The notes under the pieces are model-generated. The model saw nothing but the letters and a program-made list of their open reading frames with translations, did not search any database and was not told the DNA's origin. The translations under genes were made by a program, and so were the position numbers. Positions 1 through 42,183 of a stretch of DNA of 42,183 nt are shown here, one piece after another (the stretch's first letter is position 1; each line of letters starts with the position of its first letter). The stretch covers positions 1 to 42,183 of the forward strand of contig PIVZ01000002.1 of the NCBI GenBank assembly GCA_003354045.1, in the 5' to 3' direction. Source of the stretch: a bacterium. GTDB taxonomy: Bacteria; Desulfobacterota; Binatia; UBA1149; CAITLU01.

Positions 1-119
1 CGGCAGCCTGCGCGTATCCGCCATTCGCCGTCAGCGCAGAGAACTGCATGCGCAAACGAGTAGCCGCGAGGATCGGCGACCGGCAGTAGATGGAATCCTT
101 TCGCCCTGCGGAGGTCCGC
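1..119. repeat. Terminal overlap, copy A. It is identical to 42065-42183, so the unit genome is 42,064 bp and circularly closed.
   Basis: Direct string comparison of both ends: cggcagcctgcgcgtatccgcc...cctgcggaggtccgc occurs at both. The overlap lies inside a coding region, which fits an assembly overlap better than a physical end. Confidence 0.95.
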
Positions 120-524
120 ATCGATGAGGTTCGCCCACCGGAGGTTCGCCCTGCGGAGGTCCGCCTCGCTGAGGTCCGCCCACCGGAGGTTCGCCCCGCT
201 GAGGTCCGCCCCGCTGAGGTTCGCCTCGCTGAGGTCCGCCCACCGGAGGTCCGCATCGATGAGGTTCGCCCACCGGAGGTTCGCCTCGCTGAGGTTCGCC
301 TCGCTGAGGTCCGCCCCGCGGAGGTTCGCCTCGCTGAGGTTCGCCTCGCTGAGGTCCGCCCCGCTGAGGTTCGCATCGCTGAGGTTCGCATCGCTGAGGT
401 CCGCCCACCGGAGGTTCGCCCTGCTGAGGTCCGCCTCGAGGAGGTCCGGGATCGCACCACCATCTGCGCGGTGTGCGTTCCAGGCAGTTACGTCGGTGCG
501 TAGCGTGTCGATTGTTACTTCCAT
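1..524 (-). CDS. Pentapeptide-repeat protein, 5' (N-terminal) part. The full gene is complement(join(41938..42064,1..524)), 216 aa.
   Basis: Hand translation: ATG at 524-522 preceded by GGGGGGAG. Product [29 protein letters not shown], then about 22 consecutive A(D/N)LXX pentapeptides ([20 protein letters not shown] ...). The frame is still open at base 1, which explains its absence from the ORF track. Confidence 0.85.
106..450. repeat. Tandem array of 23 units of 15 bp; consensus on the + strand is tcgctgaggtYcgcc.
   Basis: Counted unit by unit. Several units are exactly identical (tcgctgaggtccgcc x5, caccggaggttcgcc x4). The array encodes the pentapeptide repeats on the minus strand and leaves several other frames open. 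Confidence 0.95.
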
Positions 525-552
525 CACTCGCTCCCCCCGTCAACTTCCCAGA

Positions 553-1281
553 TCATTTGAGCAGCGCCTTGACTGCCTTGGCCCCATCGAATGCCTTCCG
601 AATCTGCAGGAAGTAGTCGATTGCAGGCTGAACTGCAGCGCGTGTCCAGCTGCGATGTTCGAACGAAGCGATCTCCTTACTGAAGCGCAGGATGTGGACC
701 TCGTCGACGGGACCGAATAGGTCGTCTTGGTTCTCCTCAAGCAGGATGGTGTACCCGCCGCCAACTTGTACGAGGTGGTCTGCGTAGATCCCGTTCGAAG
801 TTTTCCAGTCGGGGACGACGAGCCGGTTCTCCTTGTCGCGCGCCACGAAGTCGATCCGGCCTCCGAAGTTGTGCTTGTCGGAGATGAGTGGAAGCTCGGT
901 CGCGAGTGGCGTGAGGCCTTGGGAGTCATACCAGCGCTTGAACTGGTCGAGGCAGTTCTCGGCTTGCTCGACCTGCTCCACGGTGAGGTGGTCGTAGTCG
1001 CTATTGTTCGCCATCGGCACCCCGGTCACCCAGACGTCGATAAGGTCGTGAGCGTACGTCCCCGTGTCTGCAGCGGCGCCTGCGACGGCATTGTGGGACT
1101 TCCCCTCCCGCTTACCACACTGAGCGCAACGCTCTTGGTCAGCGCATACAGGGTGCTCTCCCGAGCCAACCTGGTTCGCCCAGAACATCAGGCCACCCGA
1201 CTCCTTGAACCTGTTCGTGATGGTGGTGACGCCGGGGACTATCTCGCCCTTCGAGTTGCGGTACTTCTTGTGGGTTGCCAT
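553..1281 (-). CDS. PD-(D/E)XK (RecB/Cas4-type) exonuclease, the partner of the ERF annealase.
   Basis: 242 aa. Motifs GGRIDFVARD ... VVPDWKTS (D...D-x-K) and QVGGGY (QxxxY). Lies immediately downstream of the ERF gene. Confidence 0.8.
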   Translation of the reverse strand: MATHKKYRNSKGEIVPGVTTITNRFKESGGLMFWANQVGSGEHPVCADQERCAQCGKREGKSHNAVAGAAADTGTYAHDLIDVWVTGVPMANNSDYDHLTVEQVEQAENCLDQFKRWYDSQGLTPLATELPLISDKHNFGGRIDFVARDKENRLVVPDWKTSNGIYADHLVQVGGGYTILLEENQDDLFGPVDEVHILRFSKEIASFEHRSWTRAAVQPAIDYFLQIRKAFDGAKAVKALLK

Positions 1282-1282
1282 C

Positions 1283-2005
1283 TCAGTTCTCCTCCGGTGG
1301 GGTGTTCTCGGCCGCGATTTCCTTGAGGCGGTCGATGAGCTTGACGTGCTCCTTCTCCGTGATCGTCTTCGTGCTGCGGCTGTTGCCTTCGTCGTCCAGC
1401 CCGAGCAACTCGTCTATCACCGAGCGGAGGAGAGTCTCACGCTCAGGTCTGTCGAGTCCGCACGCTTCTCCGGTGGTGTTGGTCTGCGCCCACAGGTGAC
1501 GGCCGCGGATCACTGCGTCGTCTTGGGGGGCGGGGGGGTCCTGCCTCTTCTGTCGAGCAGGGGCTCCAGCGGCGGGCTCCGGCGGGCGGCGGGCGGGGTT
1601 CGCGTCGTCGTCCTCCTCCTCGAATGCCACCCCGAGGATGCAGGCCGCAGCGTACCGCCTCATGTAGGAGAGTTCGCTGCCGAGATCTTGGGCGTTGCCG
1701 GTCCCCTTCACGGGCAGGGTTGAGGAGATTGATTCCCCGTTCTCGTACATGAGGCATGACCTGAGCGAGAGCTTTCCATCGCGAATCGAAGTGGAGTTCG
1801 TCAAAGAGAAGTGGTGCTTCGCGAGAAGCGGCCTCACCTCATCGAGCAGATGGTCGTAGGTCGCGTAGCTGTAGCTGAACGAGCCACCACCCTTCATCTT
1901 CACGGTGACCTCGCGGTTGCACTTGACCGTCTTGAACTCGGCCTGCATGCTCGCGAGAGCGGTCGCCATAGCGGCTCGTTCGGTCCTGTCCTGTTCATCA
2001 TCCAT
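1283..2005 (-). CDS. erf: ERF-family single-strand annealing protein.
   Basis: YSYATYDHLLDEVRPLLAKHHFSL and GSELSYMRRYAAACILGV match the ERF pattern as I remember it. The ATG at 2005 has GGAAGGGGA 7 nt upstream; the ORF-track start at 2011 is a GTG. Confidence 0.85.
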   Translation of the reverse strand: MDDEQDRTERAAMATALASMQAEFKTVKCNREVTVKMKGGGSFSYSYATYDHLLDEVRPLLAKHHFSLTNSTSIRDGKLSLRSCLMYENGESISSTLPVKGTGNAQDLGSELSYMRRYAAACILGVAFEEEDDDANPARRPPEPAAGAPARQKRQDPPAPQDDAVIRGRHLWAQTNTTGEACGLDRPERETLLRSVIDELLGLDDEGNSRSTKTITEKEHVKLIDRLKEIAAENTPPEEN

Positions 2006-2023
2006 CGTCACATCCCCTTCCAG

Positions 2024-5693: not shown

Positions 5694-6242
5694 TCAGTCC
5701 CTCGCTCCCATCTGTTCCGCCGCAGACTGCTCGATGGCCAATCCATCAAGGTAAATCTGGGTGGTGAGTAGGCTCTTGTGGCCCAGAATCTTCTGAATCA
5801 CCCGAACCTCGAAACCCTCCTTCATCAGATCCCGCGCGCAACAATGGCGAAGAGCGTGGGGGTTGATGTCGGGGTGGATGTACTTCATGCGGCTTAGAGT
5901 CCTGCGGAAAGTCGAGGTCGCCGCCTGGTGGCCGTGGCAGGTGTCGAGCAGCCAGCCAGACTTCCTGCGGCGGACCTGACGAGTGATGAACTTGGCGTAA
6001 ATCGCGCCGATTCGAACATCTCGAGCCACCCCGCCCTTCCCTCGGGCGATTCGAACTCGGATCTGGCCGCCCGACAGCTCCTTCAGGTCGCCCACCTTCA
6101 AGCACCGCGCCTCATCGCTGCGGAGGCCACCTCGCCACATCAAAACCACCATCGCCTTGTCGCGGGTCTTCTTGAGCTTCTGGAGCAACTTCTCGGGGAT
6201 CCCCGGCGGCAGAGCCTTCTCGGTGATGTTGCGGGGCCTCAT
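5694..6242 (-). CDS. Tyrosine recombinase, catalytic domain only.
   Basis: 182 aa from ATG 6242 (ATGA overlap). Full catalytic set is visible: R (GGLRSDE), K (ARGKGG), H-x-x-R (HALRH), H (LGHKS) and Y (TTQIYL). Only about 25 aa precede the first Arg box. Confidence 0.85.
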   Translation of the reverse strand: MRPRNITEKALPPGIPEKLLQKLKKTRDKAMVVLMWRGGLRSDEARCLKVGDLKELSGGQIRVRIARGKGGVARDVRIGAIYAKFITRQVRRRKSGWLLDTCHGHQAATSTFRRTLSRMKYIHPDINPHALRHCCARDLMKEGFEVRVIQKILGHKSLLTTQIYLDGLAIEQSAAEQMGARD

Positions 6243-6718
6243 TGGGAGAGTACTTCGCGAAGGCGGATGAGTTGCCATTCGTCCTCGGCCCCGGCGGTGG
6301 CACTGGCGGTGGCCCGGGCTGCCCTGGCGGCGGCCCTGGCCGCCTGCTGAGCGTCCGCCAGCTCTTCCGATGTGGCCTCGTTATTCGCAAAGCTGCGCAC
6401 CACGTCAAGCGTGTCTGAGGGCTGCCAAGTGCAGCCCGGTGGAGCAACCCAGAGGTGCGAAACGTGTTCGGCGAAATCTGCCGCGAGGAGTCTCGCAGTG
6501 CGCGCGTCCAGCACCTCGGCGCGTAGCAACAGCCACAATACGTCAGCGCATGGGATATCCAGATCACAAGCCTCGACAAGAGTGATCTCCTCACGACCCC
6601 CGGTGATGGAGAGTAGTTTCTCTCGCCCGTCGTAGCTCGGCGCGCAAGGACCCCAGCCAAGAACGGTATCGATGGTGAGCTTGGTCATTGTCATCATCGC
6701 GCCACTGATCTCTTCCAT
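6239..6718 (-). CDS. Hypothetical protein with an Ala/Arg-rich C-terminal segment.
   Basis: 159 aa from ATG 6718 (GGGAGG 7 nt upstream). Contains WGPCAPSY...DVLWLLLR...AQQAARAAARAARATASATAG. Confidence 0.6.
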   Translation of the reverse strand: MEEISGAMMTMTKLTIDTVLGWGPCAPSYDGREKLLSITGGREEITLVEACDLDIPCADVLWLLLRAEVLDARTARLLAADFAEHVSHLWVAPPGCTWQPSDTLDVVRSFANNEATSEELADAQQAARAAARAARATASATAGAEDEWQLIRLREVLSQ

Positions 6719-6860
6719 GATGTTGCCTCCCGTGGGCATCGTCGCGCCCGTCTACGTTCATATGTGCAGCCACCGTTGGCCCAGATTGCCCAAGCCAACC
6801 CAACCCCCCCAGGCGGTCCCTCGATGAGGAGTTTCCTCGTGAAGAAGGTGGCCGCACCCA

Positions 6861-7204: not shown

Positions 7205-7795
7205 TCATGGGGCCTCTACCTCCCGGAGCGCGTGATATCTGCGCCAGTCTCCACCCCCGCTACCCTGAACGATCCGGCCCCGCTTTATACGCGGCTCTCG
7301 ATACTCCGCCCACGGGAATCGTCTCCGCAGGGTGGTATCTCTCACCGCGAGGCATCCCTCGCGTGCCGAGTCTGGTCGAAGCGGAAATACCCAGCGATCC
7401 TTTACGCTTTGCGGCCCACTACCCCAGTTGCCGTTGCCACTCGGGGGCGGGCGCAGGCGATGCCATGTGGGAGCCCAGGCCCAGCCACACGCGCGGTACA
7501 ATGCGCCGTCATGCCCCACTGCGGGGTCTGAGTAGCTCACGACGGTTGTCGGGGATCCGCTCCACGCCCGCAGCCATCCCAGCAGCCCACCCCACTGACG
7601 CGTGCCGGCGTTCGTGGCGCCGCTCACGATGCACCATCTAGATATTTCCAACCACTCGGTCGGGAGGCGTCTGCCTGTTGGGCTGGCGAGAACGATCACG
7701 CCATATTCATCCGACCATGCGATACCCCGACGGGTGGCGCCGAGGTAGTGATGTTCTGCGAGTATATGGTTCACCCTACGGAGCGCATCGATCAT
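7205..7795 (-). CDS. GNAT-fold protein of the XF1762/Mom-like type (putative DNA-modifying acyltransferase).
   Basis: 196 aa. Motif series EHHYLG ... WLEISRW ... NAGTRQW ... VVSYSDPAVGHDGALYRACGW matches my recollection of this family. No HMM check was run. Confidence 0.55.
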   Translation of the reverse strand: MIDALRRVNHILAEHHYLGATRRGIAWSDEYGVIVLASPTGRRLPTEWLEISRWCIVSGATNAGTRQWGGLLGWLRAWSGSPTTVVSYSDPAVGHDGALYRACGWAWAPTWHRLRPPPSGNGNWGSGPQSVKDRWVFPLRPDSAREGCLAVRDTTLRRRFPWAEYREPRIKRGRIVQGSGGGDWRRYHALREVEAP

Positions 7796-8277: not shown

Positions 8278-8463
8278 TCAACCTGTCCCCCGTAGATCTC
8301 GGCCCCGCTCGGCGTCGTAACTGGTGCCGTGCTCGGCTTTGTACCGCTCTCTCCACTGCACCTGAGCGGACTTCTTGCAGCAGTGCTTGTTCGGCACGTT
8401 CTCAAGAACGTCGTGCACCCATGCTCGGTGCGTTCCGATGGTCCCATCACAGTGAGGGCACAT
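8278..8463 (-). CDS. Small Zn-finger protein (Com-like by size, Cys layout and position).
   Basis: 61 aa from ATG 8463, overlapping the methyltransferase stop by 1 nt. Product MCPHCDG...(22 aa)...HCCKK. Confidence 0.5.
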   Translation of the reverse strand: MCPHCDGTIGTHRAWVHDVLENVPNKHCCKKSAQVQWRERYKAEHGTSYDAERGRDLRGTG

Positions 8464-9191
8464 CACAGCGCACCCCCCATGTTGAGCACTTCTTGCCCCA
8501 TCCTCTCCGCCGCGATCTCGCAATACTTCTCCTCTATCTCGATGCCGATGGCCTTGCGGCCCAAGTCCTTCGCGGCGCGCAGAGTGGTGCCGCTGCCCAT
8601 GAAGGGGTCAAGGACGGTGCCGCCTTCGGGCACCGAACATCCAATTGGAATTGCGACAAGGCACTCACGCATCTGCGTTGGGTGACCATTTTTCCCCGGC
8701 TGCCCGTGTCTGTATGCGTCGGCCTCAATCACATTAGACCTCGGGGTATCCGATGGGCTCGGCACCCACTCACGCCCAGGCTTGTATGCGTAAAGGCAGA
8801 GGCTCGCGCCACTAGGCCATCCCGCCCCAGGTGGCGGCGGAGCAGGGCATTTACGCGCCCACACGAGGAACCTAGTAATCCACCCGTCATCCTCAAAGAC
8901 GCTTGTGGCGAGAGAAAATTGCTGGTGGCCTAGCCATGCGTAAACGGTCAGAGCGCCGGTCAATTCCGCTGCTCGCCGGATTGTTTCGACATGGGCTAGG
9001 CCGCAGCACATATCGTCATTCTCAAAGAAAACCACGCGGCGTCTGCGTCCGTGAGTCGCCTTTGCCCCTACCCCAGATAGTCCATATGGCGGGTCTGTCA
9101 CCACCGCATCCACCTTTGGCAGCGTTGGCAGTATCTCCCGGCAGTCGCCGTGATAGATCGTGATGCCAGCCTCGTCGTAGTACGGCTTCAC
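8463..9191 (-). CDS. Beta-class amino DNA methyltransferase (N6-adenine or N4-cytosine).
   Basis: 242 aa. Motif IV DPPYG lies near the N-terminus and motif I DPFMGSGTT near the C-terminus. GTG start with GAGGGGGG upstream. Confidence 0.9.
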   Translation of the reverse strand: MKPYYDEAGITIYHGDCREILPTLPKVDAVVTDPPYGLSGVGAKATHGRRRRVVFFENDDMCCGLAHVETIRRAAELTGALTVYAWLGHQQFSLATSVFEDDGWITRFLVWARKCPAPPPPGAGWPSGASLCLYAYKPGREWVPSPSDTPRSNVIEADAYRHGQPGKNGHPTQMRECLVAIPIGCSVPEGGTVLDPFMGSGTTLRAAKDLGRKAIGIEIEEKYCEIAAERMGQEVLNMGGAL

Positions 9192-31383: not shown

Positions 31384-34300
31384 ATGGCTGGTGTGTTCGA
31401 GAGCCCTGAGTTTCTGGGAATGCCTGAGGAGAAGCAGCTCGACTATCTCCGCGAGCGCAGCCCTCAGTTTGCCGAACTCCACACTTCGAGTCCCAGCGAG
31501 GCGTTGGCGCTCCTGCGCTCTCGCACCCAGAAGCCGGAGAGCGAGAAGTCCGCTGTGGGGGAATCCATACGCCAGTTTGGGTCTGGGCTTGGCGAGTCGA
31601 TGACCGACGTCGCGGCGCTTCCGTTTGATGCTGCGGAGTGGGTGGCTTCGAAGGCCGGCAGCGAGTGGTCGACGGACCGCGACGATCGGATTGAGTCCTA
31701 CGCTGCCGAGAAGTTCCCGGCCCCCACGACGACCGAGGGCAAAGTGGCTCGCGAGATCGGGTATTGGTCCGGCGCCGGCCTCCAGACGTACCTCACGGGC
31801 GGCGTACTGGGCTGGGCTGCACGTTTCCCCGGCATGGCGAAGGCTGGCAAGGTCGGGAAGCTTCTCTCAGGAGGGGCGAAGGTAGAGGCTGCAACGGCTC
31901 TGGGTGGTGGTTCTGCAGCTGCCGCGGTGGAAGTGGGGATGGATGATACGAATCCCGCCAAGCCGCTCTACAAGCTTGGAGCTTCGATTCTTGCCGCGGG
32001 TGGTCTTGGCATTGCGGTGGCCGCTCGAGGTGCTGCGAAGCGCTCTCGTCTCGAAAGGACGGCAGGGGGGGAGCAGCCGCCTTCTCCTACGGGAGAGGAT
32101 CTTCCCCTGCTTCCTTCTGAGGCGGATCTTGCGGGGATAAAACCCCAGTCCGCTGCACTCGACGCGGTCGACGAAGTTCGCACGAACGAACTGAACGAGA
32201 TCCACGGGATGAGTGGGGACCCCGCGGAGTCGATGGCTAGGTGGAACGCCGACGTTCGCGAGTCGGGGCAGCTCGAGATGGCGGGGTTCTTCCCTGACGA
32301 CGTGCAGCAAAGTCTCTCGGATCCGAAGCTCAGGACCCTCATCAACGGGATCACCGCGGTGATCGACGAGGCTGGACTCCCCCACGATCTAACCCAGCGG
32401 TTCTACCCGCAGCTCATGTCGGCGATGAAGCAGGTCCCTCGTGATCAGGCCGACCTCATCCTCGCGAAGTTCGATACGAGCCTTCCTGAGCTCGCCGCCC
32501 TGGAAAATCCGCTAGGCGCGTCGGCTTCGATGGCAGGCCGGGCCCTTCAGGCCTTTCAGGCGGGACGCAAGCGTCTCCGCAAGCTTCTGACGAAGAAGGT
32601 CGACGCCGGCGACGCGGATCCGGCCGAGATTGCGATGTTGCAGCAGATCGGCGGCCCGGACGTCGCGATGAGGCAGGCTTGGAACCCGCCTTGGAAGCGG
32701 CTCGAAAACGTGCGACGTGGACTGTTGGTGACCCAGGTCGCCACCGCGATGCGGAACTTCGAGACCCAGGCGGCGAACCTCACGCTCCACGCGCTCGAGG
32801 ACACGTTCGAAGCCGGGATCCAGAGCCTCGTCCCTCGGTGGGGCGGACCCTCAGCGTTCATCCCGAGCGTCAAACAGGCTTGGAACTCGTGGTTCCGGAT
32901 GGCCGATTCGCTCACGCCAGGCCAGGCCAAGGGCTTCAATCAGATGGCGGCGGTCGAGGGGGAGCTGAGCGGCAAGACCCAAGTCATGTCGAAGTTGGAG
33001 GAACTTGTCGATTCCGGCACGGCCACCGACGCGAATAAGGCGATGTTGCGCGAACTGCAGAAGACGAAGCCCTCGGATGTGGGTGCGCTTGAGGGATTCG
33101 ACAACTACGCCCAGGCACTCGACGTCCCGATGGCAGACCGGGTGCTGATGGAGCCGCTCACGGGCTCCTTCAACGCCGACATCCTGATCAACCCGGAGCC
33201 TGGGGCCCTCGGTGGTCTCGAACGGCTGACGCTGAAGCTCAACACGATGAACAGGGCTCAGGAGCAGATGTTTCGTCGGTCGGTCTTCACCGCGGAGCTA
33301 GACCGGGTGCTCGCCGCCAAGGGCCAGTCACTCGACGGTCTCATCGACGCCGGTCAGATCGGAACCCTTGATCGCGGAGACATCAAGCAGGCCATCGGCA
33401 AGTCGTTGGAGATGACCTACGCCAAGGAGTTCGATCGCAACGCCCACGGTGCGGAAGGGGTGGTGGGGACGGCGATCCACCTCGTGAACCGATCGGGACT
33501 CGGGCCGTTCCGGCTCACCCAGGTCATCCCGTTCCCGCGCTTCATGGCGAATTCGCTGAAGTGGCAGTACGAACATTCTCCGCTTCGTCTCGTGAAGGCG
33601 CTCTTCTCCCCTGATGATTGGAGAGCGATCGGGCGGGGTGAGGTGAAGCCTCTCATCACGGGCACGGTGGGCATGGGGATGTTTGGGGCAGCTTACCAGG
33701 CGCGCAACTCCGAGTACGCAGGAGAGCGATGGTACGAAGTCAGGCCTCCTGAGCAGGTTGCCGAAGCGCTGAACCTCGTGAACGAGAAGGGCGAGATTGG
33801 CACGATTGACGTGCGGCCGTTCAACCCGTTTGCGTCGTATCTCTTCGCCGCAGATTTGGTGACTCGCGCTCGGGACCAGACGCTTCCCTCGATGACGACT
33901 CGCGACATGATGATGGGGATCGCCTCGATCAATCTTCGTGCTGGGGCTGGGATGTTCGTGTTGGACAAGTTCCTCGATCAGATAGGCCAAGTCGCCTCCG
34001 GCAACGCGAACCCCGAGGACGACCTCATCAGTGCACTCACCCAAGGCACGGGCGAGTACCTCGGGGCTGCTTGGTCGGGGATGTTCGTGCCGTTCCAGCA
34101 ACTCCGCGACATCGCCGCGAACTTCGACGAGATGACGGGGATGGACAACCAGACGATTCGCGACACCGCCGACGCTCCGTTTGCAGGCGCACTTGCACGC
34201 AAGCTCCCCGGTGCCGACGAGAACCTCCCTCCGGTCGAGCTTCCCACCCGAGAGGCAGCACCTCGCTCGATTGGCGGGAATTGGCGCCAAGGGCTCGGGC

Positions 34301-34701
34301 TCACGATGAGAGACCCGAAGAACCCGGCAGAGCGAGAGTTCGATCGCCTTGGCTTCTCCCGCTCGAACATCCTCCAGTCCTCAGGTGATCACAAGTGGGA
34401 CCAGCTCAACGCCAAACACATGGGACCTCTGGTCGAGAAGCACATCTCTCCATTCGTCCAGTCCGAGCGGTATCAGCGGGCCAGCAACGAAGAGAAGTTC
34501 GTCGCTCTTGAGCAGCGCATGGCCAGGGTCCGAGCGATAGCCAAGCGCAAGGCCACATCGGAAGACTTCGAACTCGCACGCAAGGTGTACTACGCCAGGG
34601 AGAAGAAGAGCAGGAAGCGTCTTCGGCGAGCGAGAGAGCGAGAGAATGATACTCTGGAACGAGAGGCTCGGCTTGGCGCCGAACTCGAAGGGGCAGGTTG
34701 A
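31384..34701 (+). CDS. Large internal / DNA-ejection protein.
   Basis: 1105 aa. Follows the SLT gene, like the body of T7 gp16. Call rests on size and position. Confidence 0.6.
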   Translation: MAGVFESPEFLGMPEEKQLDYLRERSPQFAELHTSSPSEALALLRSRTQKPESEKSAVGESIRQFGSGLGESMTDVAALPFDAAEWVASKAGSEWSTDRDDRIESYAAEKFPAPTTTEGKVAREIGYWSGAGLQTYLTGGVLGWAARFPGMAKAGKVGKLLSGGAKVEAATALGGGSAAAAVEVGMDDTNPAKPLYKLGASILAAGGLGIAVAARGAAKRSRLERTAGGEQPPSPTGEDLPLLPSEADLAGIKPQSAALDAVDEVRTNELNEIHGMSGDPAESMARWNADVRESGQLEMAGFFPDDVQQSLSDPKLRTLINGITAVIDEAGLPHDLTQRFYPQLMSAMKQVPRDQADLILAKFDTSLPELAALENPLGASASMAGRALQAFQAGRKRLRKLLTKKVDAGDADPAEIAMLQQIGGPDVAMRQAWNPPWKRLENVRRGLLVTQVATAMRNFETQAANLTLHALEDTFEAGIQSLVPRWGGPSAFIPSVKQAWNSWFRMADSLTPGQAKGFNQMAAVEGELSGKTQVMSKLEELVDSGTATDANKAMLRELQKTKPSDVGALEGFDNYAQALDVPMADRVLMEPLTGSFNADILINPEPGALGGLERLTLKLNTMNRAQEQMFRRSVFTAELDRVLAAKGQSLDGLIDAGQIGTLDRGDIKQAIGKSLEMTYAKEFDRNAHGAEGVVGTAIHLVNRSGLGPFRLTQVIPFPRFMANSLKWQYEHSPLRLVKALFSPDDWRAIGRGEVKPLITGTVGMGMFGAAYQARNSEYAGERWYEVRPPEQVAEALNLVNEKGEIGTIDVRPFNPFASYLFAADLVTRARDQTLPSMTTRDMMMGIASINLRAGAGMFVLDKFLDQIGQVASGNANPEDDLISALTQGTGEYLGAAWSGMFVPFQQLRDIAANFDEMTGMDNQTIRDTADAPFAGALARKLPGADENLPPVELPTREAAPRSIGGNWRQGLGLTMRDPKNPAEREFDRLGFSRSNILQSSGDHKWDQLNAKHMGPLVEKHISPFVQSERYQRASNEEKFVALEQRMARVRAIAKRKATSEDFELARKVYYAREKKSRKRLRRARERENDTLEREARLGAELEGAG

Positions 34702-36809
34702 TGGCAGAATTCAAAGACTACGAAATCGTGTCGGCAGACAACGACGCGGCACCTCCTGGCGGCGCCCCGGAAGAGATGGATCGAGCGGATGCCAATGACG
34801 TGATGCGCGAGATGATGGGCGCGATGGCCCGTGATACTCGTGGAGTGGCGACGGGTGGTGGTGCTTGGCGTGACCCCAACGAGGGCAACACGATTACTCG
34901 TGTGTCAGACACAGAAATCTCCATCGCCGTCGTGGACGTCACGCTGCAGTTCGTGGCCAATCGCAAGGTTCGGATCGACTACGCCACCGGGAACAACGGC
35001 TACGCCTTCGTGACGAGTTCGTCGTTCTCAGGCGGTTCCACCAACGTGATCCTAGAGGACTTCGATGGAGCCGGTGCCGATAGCGTAGTGCGCTCCGGGG
35101 TAGTCATCAACGAGGTCACATTTTCCTCCCTATTCGGAGACTCCACTGACGGGCAAGCCGGCCGACAGGCGTACGAAGACGAAGAGTCTGCCTTCGTCGT
35201 CCCGAGTGCCCTTACCTCGACAGCCATCGCAGCCGCTTTGACCTCGGCATCCTCCTCTGGCAAGACGGTGTTGCTCCAGAAGGGAACCTACGACATCACA
35301 TCGGTGATCTCGGTACCCGACAACGCCCACATCCTCGGACTTGGTGTTGGGGTATCCATCCTGATGCCCAAGACAGACCTGAACGATGCCGTATTCGAAC
35401 TCGTAGACAGCGCCTCCGACGTATCATTTGAGAACTTCGAGATCGATGGCAATGCGGCGAACCAGACCACCGCGGGTATCGCAATCGAAAGCGGCGAGGC
35501 GAATGTTCGAATCTTGATGCGCGATCTATACATCCACGACATCTACGCAGGCGGGATCCAGTTTGCTCCGTCAGTGACTTCCGTGAAGGGTCTCACTATC
35601 GAGGAGTGCGTATTCGAGGACACAGGCGGCGATGCGATTCGGATTGAGAATCCCGACTCGGTGGGATCCGACGTGTTCATGTCGAACGTATCCATCGTGG
35701 ATTACGGAGTAGGTGGGGCTGCGCTGCTTACAGCAGACGGCATTTCCTCCGCAATCAATCTTGGCATGATCGGCTGCCGGATCACTGTGAACTCGAACTT
35801 CCACACTGGCGCCGGGATCCATTGCCGCAGCGCAGGAGGTGACCATCTCACAGACGTTGACATCACAGGTTCGCTCGCAGCGGCCAGCACGACCTACGGA
35901 CTCATCATAGAGGGAGACAAATGCGACATCTTGGGATGCAGCTTCTCGCTGGCTGAAGGTTCTGGCACTGCGGTTCCGTTCGAGCTGCGCGGCGACCACA
36001 ACTCGCTGTATAACTCGTCGATCAATGATGGATCCTCGTGCTCTATCACTGGCGATCACAACCACATCTCCAACTGCCACATACTAGACACGGGCAGCAT
36101 CTCCGAGGATGTGGCGGCAATCAACAACATCATCCATGCGTGCGTGTTCGACAACATGCCCGACAAGTGCGTGGAGTTGGCCGGCACAGACTCGATCGTT
36201 CGCGGCTGCACGTTCACGAGTTGGGCCGTGGTGACGTCAAGTTCCTACGCTGTGACGCTGTCTGGCGCGAGGAATATCGAGTACGGCAACCTCTACCAAG
36301 GCCACACCGCAACCGCGCCGGACGTGTCTGCCACCGGAACATTCCCTGGCACTGGAGCGTTTTTTCATGATGCGATTGCCTCGACCCAAAATCTCCCCCT
36401 TTCTCCCGGGGTAGCCATCGAAGGCGACTCCGGGACGCTGGAAGGCGTCAACTGGCCACTTCCGCCAAATGGCAAGAGGAGATTTGTCATCGATGCGTAC
36501 GTGTCGATCGACTTCGCTGGCAGTAACACGGTTGGACTGGCTGTACGCAACGGGACAATTGGTAATATCAGCGACGCCATCATGATCCCAGCCCAAGCGA
36601 TCTATTCCAAGGCAGGAGGTGCTGGCTATGGGACTCTAATCCTGGGTGCGTGCATAGTGACTCCGGCGGTAAATACGACGTTCACAGTCGCAGCGTTCTC
36701 AACAGCGGACAGCGTTGACGATGTTCGCCCAAATAACTGGAATGTGGCTGTTTTTGACTCGAATGCCGCCTTCCCGTCGTATGTCACCGTGAGATACTTG
36801 GACGGGTGA
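34698..36809 (+). CDS. Tailspike/tail fibre with a right-handed parallel beta-helix (pectate-lyase-like) domain.
   Basis: 703 aa. GKTVLLQKGTYDITSVISVPDNAHILGLG ... VSFENFEIDGNAANQ ... repeated short beta-helix rungs. Confidence 0.8.
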   Translation: MMAEFKDYEIVSADNDAAPPGGAPEEMDRADANDVMREMMGAMARDTRGVATGGGAWRDPNEGNTITRVSDTEISIAVVDVTLQFVANRKVRIDYATGNNGYAFVTSSSFSGGSTNVILEDFDGAGADSVVRSGVVINEVTFSSLFGDSTDGQAGRQAYEDEESAFVVPSALTSTAIAAALTSASSSGKTVLLQKGTYDITSVISVPDNAHILGLGVGVSILMPKTDLNDAVFELVDSASDVSFENFEIDGNAANQTTAGIAIESGEANVRILMRDLYIHDIYAGGIQFAPSVTSVKGLTIEECVFEDTGGDAIRIENPDSVGSDVFMSNVSIVDYGVGGAALLTADGISSAINLGMIGCRITVNSNFHTGAGIHCRSAGGDHLTDVDITGSLAAASTTYGLIIEGDKCDILGCSFSLAEGSGTAVPFELRGDHNSLYNSSINDGSSCSITGDHNHISNCHILDTGSISEDVAAINNIIHACVFDNMPDKCVELAGTDSIVRGCTFTSWAVVTSSSYAVTLSGARNIEYGNLYQGHTATAPDVSATGTFPGTGAFFHDAIASTQNLPLSPGVAIEGDSGTLEGVNWPLPPNGKRRFVIDAYVSIDFAGSNTVGLAVRNGTIGNISDAIMIPAQAIYSKAGGAGYGTLILGACIVTPAVNTTFTVAAFSTADSVDDVRPNNWNVAVFDSNAAFPSYVTVRYLDG

Positions 36810-36816
36810 GAAATGT

Positions 36817-37548
36817 ATGTGGTCGAAGCAGCGGCAGAGGATTGAGCGCCTTGAGGGACTCCGGGTAGGTGAACTGTTCCTGCGCGATGCTCGGGATCTA
36901 AAGACCGCTGAATACACACCGAAGGAATTGGCACCCGTTCGGAGAGCGTGGGGATTGCTCCATTCGTTCATGGCCAAGCGACGACCTGGGGTCCAGACCT
37001 GCGCGGCGAGCACGGTGATTCAGGACGGATACCACGAGGCCTTTGCGAGTTACCAGAAGGACCACCTCGACGCAACCACCGACGACTTTGAACTGGCGTA
37101 CGATCCAATCATCGACGACACGCTTGCAGACCCGCGTCTGCACACACTTACGTTTGTAGTCTCAATTGTGGGGAGCGGGGAACTCGCTGGGCTCTTCCAC
37201 CTCCACAACATCCGGGTCTTGGAGTCTTCGCCAAGGGCCCTCGTGGTGAGTGCGATGGCGTCGCCTGCATTCAAGACTCGACGCGGCTTCATCCACCCCG
37301 ACGATCTCGGACCCCTGATGAACGCGCTGCTGGAGCGTGACATCAAGTTCCGCGACAGCTCCCGCGTCTTCGACATGAAGGAATGGATCTTCCCGACAGA
37401 CCGCCGGGGGCATACCTGGGTAGATCGTGGTCCTATGGAGACCTGCGCGCTGACCCTGGGACACCTCGACGACCACGACCGCACCGACAAGACCGTCGAA
37501 GGCCAGGCGGCGCCGCATCGGATCACACGCAAGGCTGTGAGGCGGTAG
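36817..37548 (+). CDS. Hypothetical protein downstream of the tailspike.
   Basis: 243 aa. Operon position and protein-like composition. Confidence 0.6.
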   Translation: MWSKQRQRIERLEGLRVGELFLRDARDLKTAEYTPKELAPVRRAWGLLHSFMAKRRPGVQTCAASTVIQDGYHEAFASYQKDHLDATTDDFELAYDPIIDDTLADPRLHTLTFVVSIVGSGELAGLFHLHNIRVLESSPRALVVSAMASPAFKTRRGFIHPDDLGPLMNALLERDIKFRDSSRVFDMKEWIFPTDRRGHTWVDRGPMETCALTLGHLDDHDRTDKTVEGQAAPHRITRKAVRR

Positions 37549-37550
37549 GC

Positions 37551-38681
37551 GTGGCCTTGAACCTCTCCACATTCCACCCGCACCACGCTACGAGTGAGAA
37601 CGCCGATGCGTGGGCAACGCACAGCAGTACCACGGCCAACGATCCGGCCGGCGCGACAGTTCGGATCGGTCTCGGGGCGAAGGACGTGGGCAAGAGTTCG
37701 CTCGCAACCCGGTACGACCTATCGGTCCCCACGACGGGGCTGGCGATCACCAGCAGAGCCATCATCACGAGGGCGATGTTTTCATTCACAGTCTCGGAGC
37801 AAGCGATCACATCTGACGGGCTCGGCCACTTCTCGGTAGGCATCGATGCGGGCACTGGGGACTGGTTCGACGGTGGTTACTCGGCGGCCATCTGCCCGAC
37901 GCGGGACGATGTCCCGCACTTCAGCGACGACAACGACGTGATCCACCCGGGGACGATGTTCGGTGATACGTGGATCGTAGGGACGATCCTGTATGCCGCG
38001 GCTACCTACACGGTCGGGAGCGCGCAGTTCGCGGGCCAGGGCTTCCCGATCTTCTTTGGTACAAACGCCGATCGCCTGCAGAATCTGACCAGCGAGCTCA
38101 ACAGGTGGATCTCGCGTCCCGCATTCGCCGACTCCCAGGTGATCTGCATCGGGTTTGACTCGCGGTTCGTGCCACCTCCGGGAGGGGATGAATTCTTCGG
38201 CCTCTACAGTTCGGACGCTCCCGCCTTCCCTGGCGTGGGCTTCATCATCGAGTGGGAAGAGCTGCCATCCATCATCACGACCAAGGGGTTCGAAGCGGGC
38301 CCCTCGGTAACGGACGCTGGAATGGAGTCTGGCGCCTCAGTAACGACCGTAGGAACATCAGCGGGTCCTTCCTTGACAACCTCAGGTCTAAGGGGGATTC
38401 CCTCTATGGAGGCATTCGGGATAGACGCTGAGCCTGCATTGTCGGGGGGTCTGATTACGGCGGGCCGCTCGATGACGAATCGAGGTCTCGAGGCTGATTC
38501 TTCAGTGTCGAATTTTGGGATAGCGACGGAGGCTGAAACCTCCATATCAATCGAGGGGTTTGAGGCTGGAGCCTCTGTGGTAAGTTCACCATTGGCAGCT
38601 GCTCCCTCCATCTCCAGCAAGGCCCTCGAGCCGGGTCCCGCGATAGAGTCCAGATTGAAGATGAAGGAGCACGACGCATGA
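37551..38681 (+). CDS. Fibre-like protein with 11 C-terminal repeats of 11 aa.
   Basis: 376 aa from GTG 37551, 2 nt after the upstream stop. Repeats KGFEAGPSVTD / AGMESGASVTT / VGTSAGPSLTT ... Confidence 0.6.
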   Translation: MALNLSTFHPHHATSENADAWATHSSTTANDPAGATVRIGLGAKDVGKSSLATRYDLSVPTTGLAITSRAIITRAMFSFTVSEQAITSDGLGHFSVGIDAGTGDWFDGGYSAAICPTRDDVPHFSDDNDVIHPGTMFGDTWIVGTILYAAATYTVGSAQFAGQGFPIFFGTNADRLQNLTSELNRWISRPAFADSQVICIGFDSRFVPPPGGDEFFGLYSSDAPAFPGVGFIIEWEELPSIITTKGFEAGPSVTDAGMESGASVTTVGTSAGPSLTTSGLRGIPSMEAFGIDAEPALSGGLITAGRSMTNRGLEADSSVSNFGIATEAETSISIEGFEAGASVVSSPLAAAPSISSKALEPGPAIESRLKMKEHDA

Positions 38682-41937: not shown

Positions 41938-42183
41938 TCACCTCGTGCCGTCGGCAATCCTGCCCTCAAGCCAGTCGAGCGCGTGCAGGTACATGTCCCC
42001 GATCCAGCGCTCTCCGGTGTAGCCCTCGCCCCAATGCTCGCGAGCCTCGGCGATTGTAAGGAAACGGCAGCCTGCGCGTATCCGCCATTCGCCGTCAGCG
42101 CAGAGAACTGCATGCGCAAACGAGTAGCCGCGAGGATCGGCGACCGGCAGTAGATGGAATCCTTTCGCCCTGCGGAGGTCCGC
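41938..42183 (-). CDS. Pentapeptide-repeat protein, 3' (C-terminal) part. 42065-42183 duplicates 1-119.
   Basis: Hand translation across the junction: ...GEWRIRAGC|RFLTIAEAREHWGEGYTGERWIGDMYLHALDWLEGRIADGTR, then TGA at 41940-41938. Confidence 0.8.
   Translation of the reverse strand, partial: ADLRRAKGFHLLPVADPRGYSFAHAVLCADGEWRIRAGCRFLTIAEAREHWGEGYTGERWIGDMYLHALDWLEGRIADGTR
42065..42183. repeat. Terminal overlap, copy B (identical to 1-119).
   Basis: Direct string comparison. Confidence 0.95.

Follow-up and report, generated by a model that had tools for sequence, protein, structure and literature searches.

The analysed stretch of DNA (contig PIVZ01000002.1 of GenBank assembly GCA_003354045.1, forward strand, positions 1 to 42,183; henceforth called the window) carries, split over its two ends, a minus-strand gene for a 216-aa pentapeptide-repeat protein, which is a genuine and intact early gene of a ~42-kb tailed phage known from metagenomic sequence alone. 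The protein is best explained as a member of a family that combines a short N-terminal cap, a pentapeptide beta-helix and a novel C-terminal domain (henceforth C-dom), and in which the repeat array is fluid and amplified by slippage; this explanation was assigned a probability of roughly 60%. New in this family are the undescribed C-dom, its fusion to at least three unrelated kinds of solenoid, and the unit-by-unit instability of the array. To our knowledge, most pentapeptide-repeat proteins are without known function, and phage copies are annotated by the repeat alone.

Window positions 1-119 are an exact copy of 42065-42183 (119 bp), giving a unique length of 42,064 bp; such a terminal duplicate marks the assembly as circular or concatemeric, with the cut inside the gene, and adds no genome. 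Translated across the overlap, the coding sequence complement(join(41938..42064,1..524)) spans 651 nt and encodes 216 aa, laid out as a 30-aa N-terminal cap, a 110-aa array and a 76-aa C-dom. A junction-spanning gene had been proposed in the initial annotation of the window, and its course from ATG 524 across the join to TGA 41940-41938, its length of 216 aa and its quoted sequence were all reproduced. The same annotation had treated three open reading frames (ORFs) called over this DNA (31-543 (-), 90-503 (+), and 124-720 (+)) as artefacts, and their translations are indeed low-complexity strings (GEPQR, AEVRP, and LRSA/LRFA), i.e., the repeat read in other frames. ATG 524 is more probable as the start codon than an in-frame GTG at 527, and the helical cap resembles the N-termini of relatives such as P0080, P0085, and P0090. 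The parts of the gene are as follows:

1-524, minus strand: 5' part of the coding sequence, codons 1-175 (translation across the 119-bp overlap)
531-538, minus strand: Shine-Dalgarno-like sequence GGGGGGAG, 6 nt upstream of ATG 524 (read from the sequence)
435-524, minus strand: N-terminal cap, residues 1-30 (AlphaFold2 helix at residues 5-19, low confidence)
105-434, minus strand: array of 22 pentapeptide units, residues 31-140 (Pfam PF00805, Tandem Repeats Finder, AlphaFold2)
41941-42168, minus strand: C-terminal domain, residues 141-216 (contiguous at the right window end; 42065-42168 duplicates 1-104)
41938-41940, minus strand: stop codon TGA (read from the sequence)
42065-42183, no strand: duplicate of window 1-119 (exact identity)

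Residues 31-140 (window 434..105) consist of 22 consecutive A(D/N)LXX units, in which positions 1 (Ala) and 3 (Leu) never deviate. This count, taken against a threshold of at least 8 tandem units for an unbroken register, agrees with the approximately 22 units given initially, and a degenerate PDLLE preceding the array accounts for the alternative figure of 22-23 units. Tandem Repeats Finder reported a period of 15 (22.4 copies, 76% matches) and a stronger period of 45 (7.8 copies, 84%). The array contains 12 distinct 15-mers with a mean pairwise unit identity of 0.80, and its longest exact internal repeat is 46 bp at an offset of 45. An earlier description of the array as near-perfect was therefore overstated, and identical 15-mers do recur, the two commonest being found four times each (four to five times had been claimed). 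The noted similarity between unit triplets 1-3 and 10-12 in plus-strand order, corresponding to minus-strand units 20-22 and 11-13, was recovered at 41 of 45 bases. DNA uniformity beyond what the protein motif requires, the other part of that description, holds at the level of codons: Ala is encoded by GCG (22/22), Leu by CTC (22/22), Ser by AGC (12/12), Asn by AAC (12/12), and Asp by GAC (10/10). The phage's own long genes use GCG for 33%, CTC for 43% and AGC for 20% of the respective residues, so that the joint probability of the array pattern is ~1e-30.5. Because the codons are invariant to a degree this improbable under the codon usage of the phage, the units share recent common descent, as the initially suggested expansion or homogenisation had it.

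Modelled alone with AlphaFold2, the C-dom folds into four strands followed by two helices (predicted local distance difference test score (pLDDT) 89, predicted template modelling score (pTM) 0.79). Its motif, LLPV.DPRGY...W.IRAGCR.[FL]TI.EAR.HW...GDMYL.A.DWLE, has 12 invariant columns in 21 sequences, and the core motif of the family, [IV]RAGCR.[FL][TS][IL].EAR.HW after (D/S).(R/D)GY, is present in the window protein as DPRGY...IRAGCRFLTIAEAREHW; the conserved residues include R153, R169, R171, C174, R175, E181, R183, H185, and W186. No match to the C-dom was found in Pfam, NCBIfam, PHROGs, PADLOC, or the Protein Data Bank (PDB; by sequence, profile, and Foldseek). Scattered weak matches to USP and Josephin deubiquitinases, one to Pfam Josephin (E 0.14) and one to a MuDR DNA-binding domain (E 0.06), each came from a single member and were discarded as noise. 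Among the predicted viral structures of BFVD, the C-dom matched the C-terminal parts of phage proteins with a probability of 1.0 and TM-scores of 0.58-0.74, these proteins being annotated as pentapeptide, 'beta solenoid', hexapeptide-transferase-like, or bactofilin-like. Two subtypes of the C-dom, the window protein belonging to subtype i, are homologous to each other (hhalign 99.5%, E 7e-23). The initial annotation recognised no motif in the C-terminal 77 aa and in doing so set aside the conserved part. Judged by sequence comparison, the C-dom is an undescribed domain that defines the family and is its conserved part, and we infer that the conserved function sits in it.

The family was delineated by a search with the last 86 residues of the window protein, followed by an exhaustive profile search of representatives at 50% clustering. 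The first search yielded 20 metagenomic proteins of 43-79% identity, all of them small and most composed of a helix, a few pentapeptides and the C-dom. Among the best 150 representatives of the profile search, ~97 of the 149 new ones were proteins of 90-273 aa with a C-terminal match, and the other 52 were long generic pentapeptide proteins. As the profile contained repeat columns, the total of 49,722 proteins at E<=0.001 consists mostly of generic pentapeptide proteins. A scan of IMG/VR returned 29 loci in which the C-dom stands behind classic or ARLDG pentapeptides, hexapeptides (GNAQVS/GDARVF and LGNWVT types), or Cys-rich arrays (CRNCRN and CSDCSG types). The family layout comprises ~90-360 aa with a short N-terminal cap, a tandem array and the C-dom at the extreme C-terminus, and the 216-aa window protein shows this layout throughout. 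Pentapeptide counts in the family extend from 0 to ~49 units, and one C-dom member (P0106) is without any array.

By these searches, the C-dom family is found almost only in viral contigs and metagenomes. Peptide-pattern scans of 185,579 bacterial and archaeal genomes (one per species) hit only 5 contigs of metagenome-assembled genomes, and cultured phages with a C-dom, all of subtype ii, are the Caulobacter phages RW, RLK, KcrB, and GB2A as well as EBPR siphovirus 2. The subtype i C-dom alone had no match in 50,697 phage records (tblastn), and tblastn matches of the protein to Listeria, Acinetobacter, Ralstonia, and Rheinheimera phages that reached residue 205-213 were rejected as repeat-driven. 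Through its repeats the window protein matches 486 phage records, i.e., a pentapeptide protein in a phage is ordinary.

The solenoids in front of the C-dom differ in kind. Hexapeptide arrays precede it at L015-L017, L022, and L031, and L016 matches the left-handed beta-helix family YdcK (E 8e-23); thus, the C-dom follows solenoids of different handedness. Cys-rich repeats of three or six residues (CRNCRN..., CSDCSG...) precede it at L012 and L014, which are both ends of IMGVR_UViG_3300024520_000069, and at L013 and L026. These Cys-rich members share a conserved N-terminus (W.TDDNGN.ASVEYWGS), two such genes lie in tandem at L014, and the sole library match of this repeat type was a weak one to the His-Xaa-Ser repeat protein HxsA4 (E 0.16). 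At the level of fold, a solenoid followed by the C-dom fold also occurs in two Bacillus phage proteins, the hexapeptide-like L0LC68 of phiAGATE and the bactofilin-like A0A0A0PQW0 of Bp8p-T, and in A0A514CST6 of Achromobacter phage Motura (Foldseek probability 1.0 and TM-scores of 0.68-0.74 to the window C-dom), although repeat chemistry and handedness differ and the identity of 13-19% makes this a fold-level similarity only.

Evidence that arrays change by whole units comes from the relatives. Each of 15 relatives uses a single codon for Ala and a single codon for Leu throughout its array, except for one Leu codon in L009, and the codon pairs vary between lineages (GCC/CTT, GCC/TTG, GCT/CTC, GCG/CTC, GCG/CTG, and GCC/CTG). 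Uniformity within and difference between lineages is the hallmark of arrays that were amplified independently or evolved in concert; each lineage amplified and homogenised its array separately, probably by replication slippage or unequal recombination between 15-bp units. Two IMG/VR loci (L020 and L023) with flanks that are 98-99% identical over 3.4 and 2.9 kb have 8 and 25 units, respectively. Likewise, gp016 of Caulobacter phage RW (356 aa) and gp015 of GB2A (231 aa) differ in nothing but an exact block of 125 residues. According to the published comparison, which notes the 375-bp deletion, the genomes are further distinguished only by two single-base changes and two additional Cs (PMC11053796). 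The copy-number instability raised in the initial annotation is hence seen in relatives, the evidence not coming from the window phage itself. The longest uninterrupted run among 86 members was 3-27 units (median 11), so that the 22 units of the window are high but not exceptional; an earlier impression of an outlier expansion, gained from 20 word-indexed homologues with 3-11 units, was dropped after the exhaustive search.

RW gp016 and GB2A gp015, annotated as 'pentapeptide repeat family protein' (Riverwalkvirus; PMC11053796), share with the window protein an N-terminal cap, a long array and a C-dom, and are linked to it through the subtype ii C-dom (tblastn E 8e-5) and its hhalign match of 99.5% to subtype i. 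They differ in unit number (~49 in RW and ~24 in GB2A versus 22), in their divergent C-dom subtype (RAGCRTFTLEQFRAHV), in host and phage type, and in their neighbours, which are hypothetical genes in place of an ERF-family and an exonuclease gene. Relatives are often located at the ends of contigs, in one 64.9-kb contig at either end, and the arrays evidently break assemblies, as in the window. Because the arrays break or circularise assemblies at the gene, it is routinely split or missed by ORF callers.

Assignment of the array to the pentapeptide beta-helix class, as made in the initial annotation, is backed by three lines of evidence. Pfam PF00805 scored 167.8 bits against a cut-off of 20.2 (E 2.9e-50, four stretches), which places the protein in the pentapeptide superfamily; the nearest sequence relatives in the PDB are all pentapeptide beta-helices (E 1e-37 to 1e-39); and AlphaFold2 shows one bridge per five residues at residues 100-140 (pLDDT 88-92). 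The 22 units would give ~5.5 coils of a predicted right-handed quadrilateral beta-helix. Foldseek with the full AlphaFold2 model was uninformative, and neither this model nor that of the C-dom alone had a PDB match better than E ~1. The array of the window protein has a net charge of -9 over 110 aa, an isoelectric point of 4.27, 11 Arg, and 5 exposed Trp. Known beta-helices built from tandem A(D/N)LXX units, the fold predicted here, include Np275/Np276 (2j8k), All3740 (3du1), Alr5209 (6omx), and the designed 'beta1' (4yc5); none of them has the C-dom, and compared to them the window array is unusually regular (22/22 canonical) and homogeneous at the DNA level.

Upstream of the gene and on the same strand lie two recombination genes, which make it the third gene after ERF and exonuclease, in agreement with the initial annotation:

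553-1281, minus strand: PD-(D/E)XK exonuclease (Pfam PF12705; PHROG 298, E 2e-24)
1283-2011, minus strand: ERF-family single-strand annealing protein, first gene of the recombination pair (Pfam PF04404, E 3.7e-12; PHROG 2324, 155)

The exonuclease stop is separated from ATG 524 by 28 nt. Among the relatives, YqaJ exonuclease (Pfam-confirmed), ERF or SSB genes were found within a few genes at L006, L007, L013, L018, L019, and L020/21/23, and at L001 the gene is flanked by a Cro-like gene on one side and by primase and helicase genes on the other. The gene thus occupies an early or DNA-metabolism region, in the window after ERF and exonuclease and in relatives near YqaJ, ERF, SSB, Cro-like, primase, or helicase genes. 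Phage recombination modules commonly include an inhibitor of end-processing nucleases, e.g., lambda Gam or P22 Abc, and Gam and gp5.9 are DNA mimics. Because the gene follows ERF and exonuclease, and six other lineages have it beside YqaJ, ERF or SSB, the protein is proposed to be an accessory of the phage recombination module, in a role like that of Gam or Abc beside other recombinases. The C-dom would dock onto and block a host enzyme that processes DNA ends or binds DNA (a nuclease of the RecBCD/AddAB type, or one acting in restriction or defence), and the solenoid would be a tolerant, rapidly resizable rod serving as a scaffold, a spacer, or a steric, mildly acidic DNA-like body. By analogy, such a C-dom-anchored inhibitor of host DNA-end processing or of a defence nuclease is a tentative proposal. 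The likeness to lambda Gam, P22 Abc, and T7 gp5.9 is one of genomic logic only (a small acidic early protein beside an annealing-protein/exonuclease pair): the window protein had no Pfam or PHROG match to the Gam, Abc2, or gp5.9 families and no PDB fold match, and only the gene position is similar. Speculatively, and with similarly low confidence, the gene might be a contingency locus, in which a docking C-dom is combined with an interchangeable solenoid and units gained or lost within a few generations would retune the blocking rod in its length or surface. If this were true, a previously unrecognised and structurally novel inhibitor family would accompany phage recombination modules.

Several observations weigh against the cap, beta-helix and C-dom reading or against the role proposed with it. 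AlphaFold2 models residues 40-75 poorly (pLDDT 37-59 over residues 40-90), because the alignment offers no cover for the extra units. Arrays of the family are mildly acidic, with a median charge of -3.7 per 100 residues and a range of -15.6 to +20; because they are only mildly acidic and some are basic, a DNA-like body is not general in the family. Recombination genes lie near the gene in only 7 of ~25 independent lineages (including the window), a modest association, given here as a raw count. No relative of the C-dom with a known activity was found, and as the genome scans used only a few peptide patterns, the apparent restriction to phage DNA is to be read as a lower bound. Finally, the 22-unit count and the circular join come from this one assembly, and several array paths coexist in the sequencing data.

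These data stem from the one public run that holds the window phage (X1, contigs at k=31). A backbone contig of X1 covers 490-41977 at a depth of 21.8, and the unique ends of the gene (41948-42170 and 447-519) have a depth of ~41x, twice that of the backbone, and both join foreign flanks. The foreign joins read ...GGGCTCATCC|41948 and 519|GTACCCATGCGCC.... Doubled depth together with foreign flanks means that a near-identical gene body is present in a second context at similar depth; there the gene would begin with MGTVTIDTL and continue past ...RIADG. This second context could have arisen when two phages recently exchanged the gene; alternatively, two copies could flank the 41.4-kb segment. 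Both foreign 30-mers and a gene-specific 30-mer were absent from the viral, genome, and metagenome contig collections, and exact-protein look-ups of the neighbouring genes gave no match. Depths are 5.9-12 for unitigs specific to the C-proximal array half and 14-18 for alternative paths, and a variant N-terminal boundary is attached after ~5 or 7 units; evidently, several alleles or array lengths coexist in the sample. In runs from unrelated marine-sediment, wetland, soil, and wastewater metagenomes (X2, X3, X16, and X19), the array (121-456) matches hundreds of short unitigs at 95-100% identity with very high summed depth. The sharing of ~10% of words with sediment, wetland, soil, and wastewater metagenomes was rejected as a measure of phage distribution, since it comes from the array only (121-456), i.e., from generic GC-rich pentapeptide words; words of the form GCG-RAC-CTC-AGC-GRG evidently recur in many pentapeptide genes of high G+C content.

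The assembly data raise the alternative that reads from several related genes in the sample were merged into a chimeric array or circular join, so that the 216-aa protein would not exist as written. The position of the contig ends in or beside the array, the excess depth and foreign flanks of the gene ends, the low-depth C-proximal unitigs with their alternative paths, and the occurrence of relatives at contig ends too would all fit it. Every 31-mer path of the window array is nevertheless tiled by exact X1 unitigs, the longest internal repeat (46 bp) is far shorter than the 119-bp overlap and leaves k-mers of overlap size unique, and both halves of the gene are in frame. The same architecture recurs in ~100 independently assembled relatives, and an intact gene with a C-dom follows the exonuclease in either resolution of the graph. 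A chimera is hence improbable, and the layout as cap, array and C-dom stands however the graph is resolved. Regarding function, the protein might instead act on another target (transcription, replication, a defence protein, or nucleic acid) through the C-dom, with the array a neutral, slippage-driven appendage. This would accord with the C-dom being the only conserved part, with conserved Arg, Cys, and His; with arrays that can be lost or swapped; with the viability of isolates RW and GB2A despite a difference of 25 units; and with the 18 of ~25 lineages that have no recombination gene nearby. Without exception, however, the arrays are in frame and keep a perfect register as solenoids, and most members have one, which argues for selection on a folded rod; recombination genes also recur in seven lineages; overall, we regard action on another target as possible but doubtful, on a par with the recombination-module inhibitor.

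The initial annotation regarded a DNA-mimic role, after the example of MfpA and Qnr, as reasonable but unproven. In a reading of this type, the acidic beta-helix would dimerise, imitate B-form DNA, and bind a type I restriction enzyme or host gyrase or topoisomerase IV. With Qnr, MfpA, AlbG, and McbG the protein indeed shares its fold class, its size of nearly 200 aa and its acidity overall, weak repeat-borne matches to Qnr, MfpA, and AlbG/McbG-like chains were obtained (Qnr and MfpA at E 1e-9 to 1e-7), the window array is acidic as given above, and phage gyrase inhibitors exist in general (PMC10886550). The scores of the Qnr and MfpA models fall short by a factor of 6-9, however: 38.4 bits against 240 for NCBIfam Qnr (NF033086) and 40.6 against a cut-off of 360 for MfpA (NF000349). 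With the models for QnrA, B, C, D, E, S, and VC, 23-41 bits were reached against 425-500. Loop insertions and a C-terminal dimerisation helix are present in the structures of QnrB1 and AhQnr, and MfpA has ~8 coils. The window array has no loop insertions (loops A/B), a globular C-dom takes the place of the dimerisation helix, the ~5.5 coils are fewer than those of MfpA, and the gene belongs to a phage early operon. Among relatives that share this C-dom, some have 0-5 units, some a different type of repeat, and some an array that is neutral to basic. In the sole test of its kind that was found, McbG and QnrB failed to block BREX defence (PMC7261183). Because arrays in the family are absent, short (3 units), swapped or basic, a DNA-like rod cannot be the conserved function, although it may contribute in the window phage. 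Membership in the Qnr or MfpA families was not upheld, and a DNA mimic of this type, with the targets named above, is very unlikely.

With the C-dom family as the preferred explanation, attention moves from a 'DNA-mimic helix' to the binding partner of the C-dom. Literature searches turned up no work on the function of phage pentapeptide proteins or of the C-dom; for a Listeria phage gene, a transcriptomic paper only notes the HHpred resemblance (PMC12282133), and a literature match combining 'pentapeptide' and 'RecBCD inhibitor' proved irrelevant. The family offers a clean natural example of coding tandem arrays in which phages that are identical elsewhere differ by whole units, and with the cultured members RW and GB2A as a natural pair differing by 25 units, the question is directly testable.

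Other genes of the window were characterised by PHROG matches. A tyrosine-integrase-like gene at 5694-6739 (minus strand) is apparently split over two frames, with ORF 5694-6278 (194 aa) matching integrase PHROGs 1 and 216 (phrog_1 profile positions 277-435 of 611) and the overlapping ORF 6239-6739 (166 aa) matching PHROG 18326 only; a frameshift, decay of the integrase or an error of the assembly may account for the split. Because an integrase-like ORF is present, the phage may be temperate or of temperate ancestry. The same early arm carries a Mom-like DNA-modification protein (7205-7795, minus strand; PHROG 1384) and a DNA methyltransferase (8463-9191, minus strand; PHROG 67, E 4.5e-52), and from these matches the phage appears to invest in anti-restriction DNA modification; PADLOC gave no defence-system match. 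Two ORFs of the structural arm (31384-36809, plus strand; 1105 and 703 aa) and a 432-aa ORF at 37383-38681 had no PHROG match, and ARAGORN detected no tRNA or tmRNA genes in the whole window. The G+C content of the window is 60.6%. Its terminase is at most ~40% identical to those of cultured phages, the best matches being Acetobacter phage phiAX1 and Stenotrophomonas phages, which by sequence identity marks a poorly sampled phage lineage.

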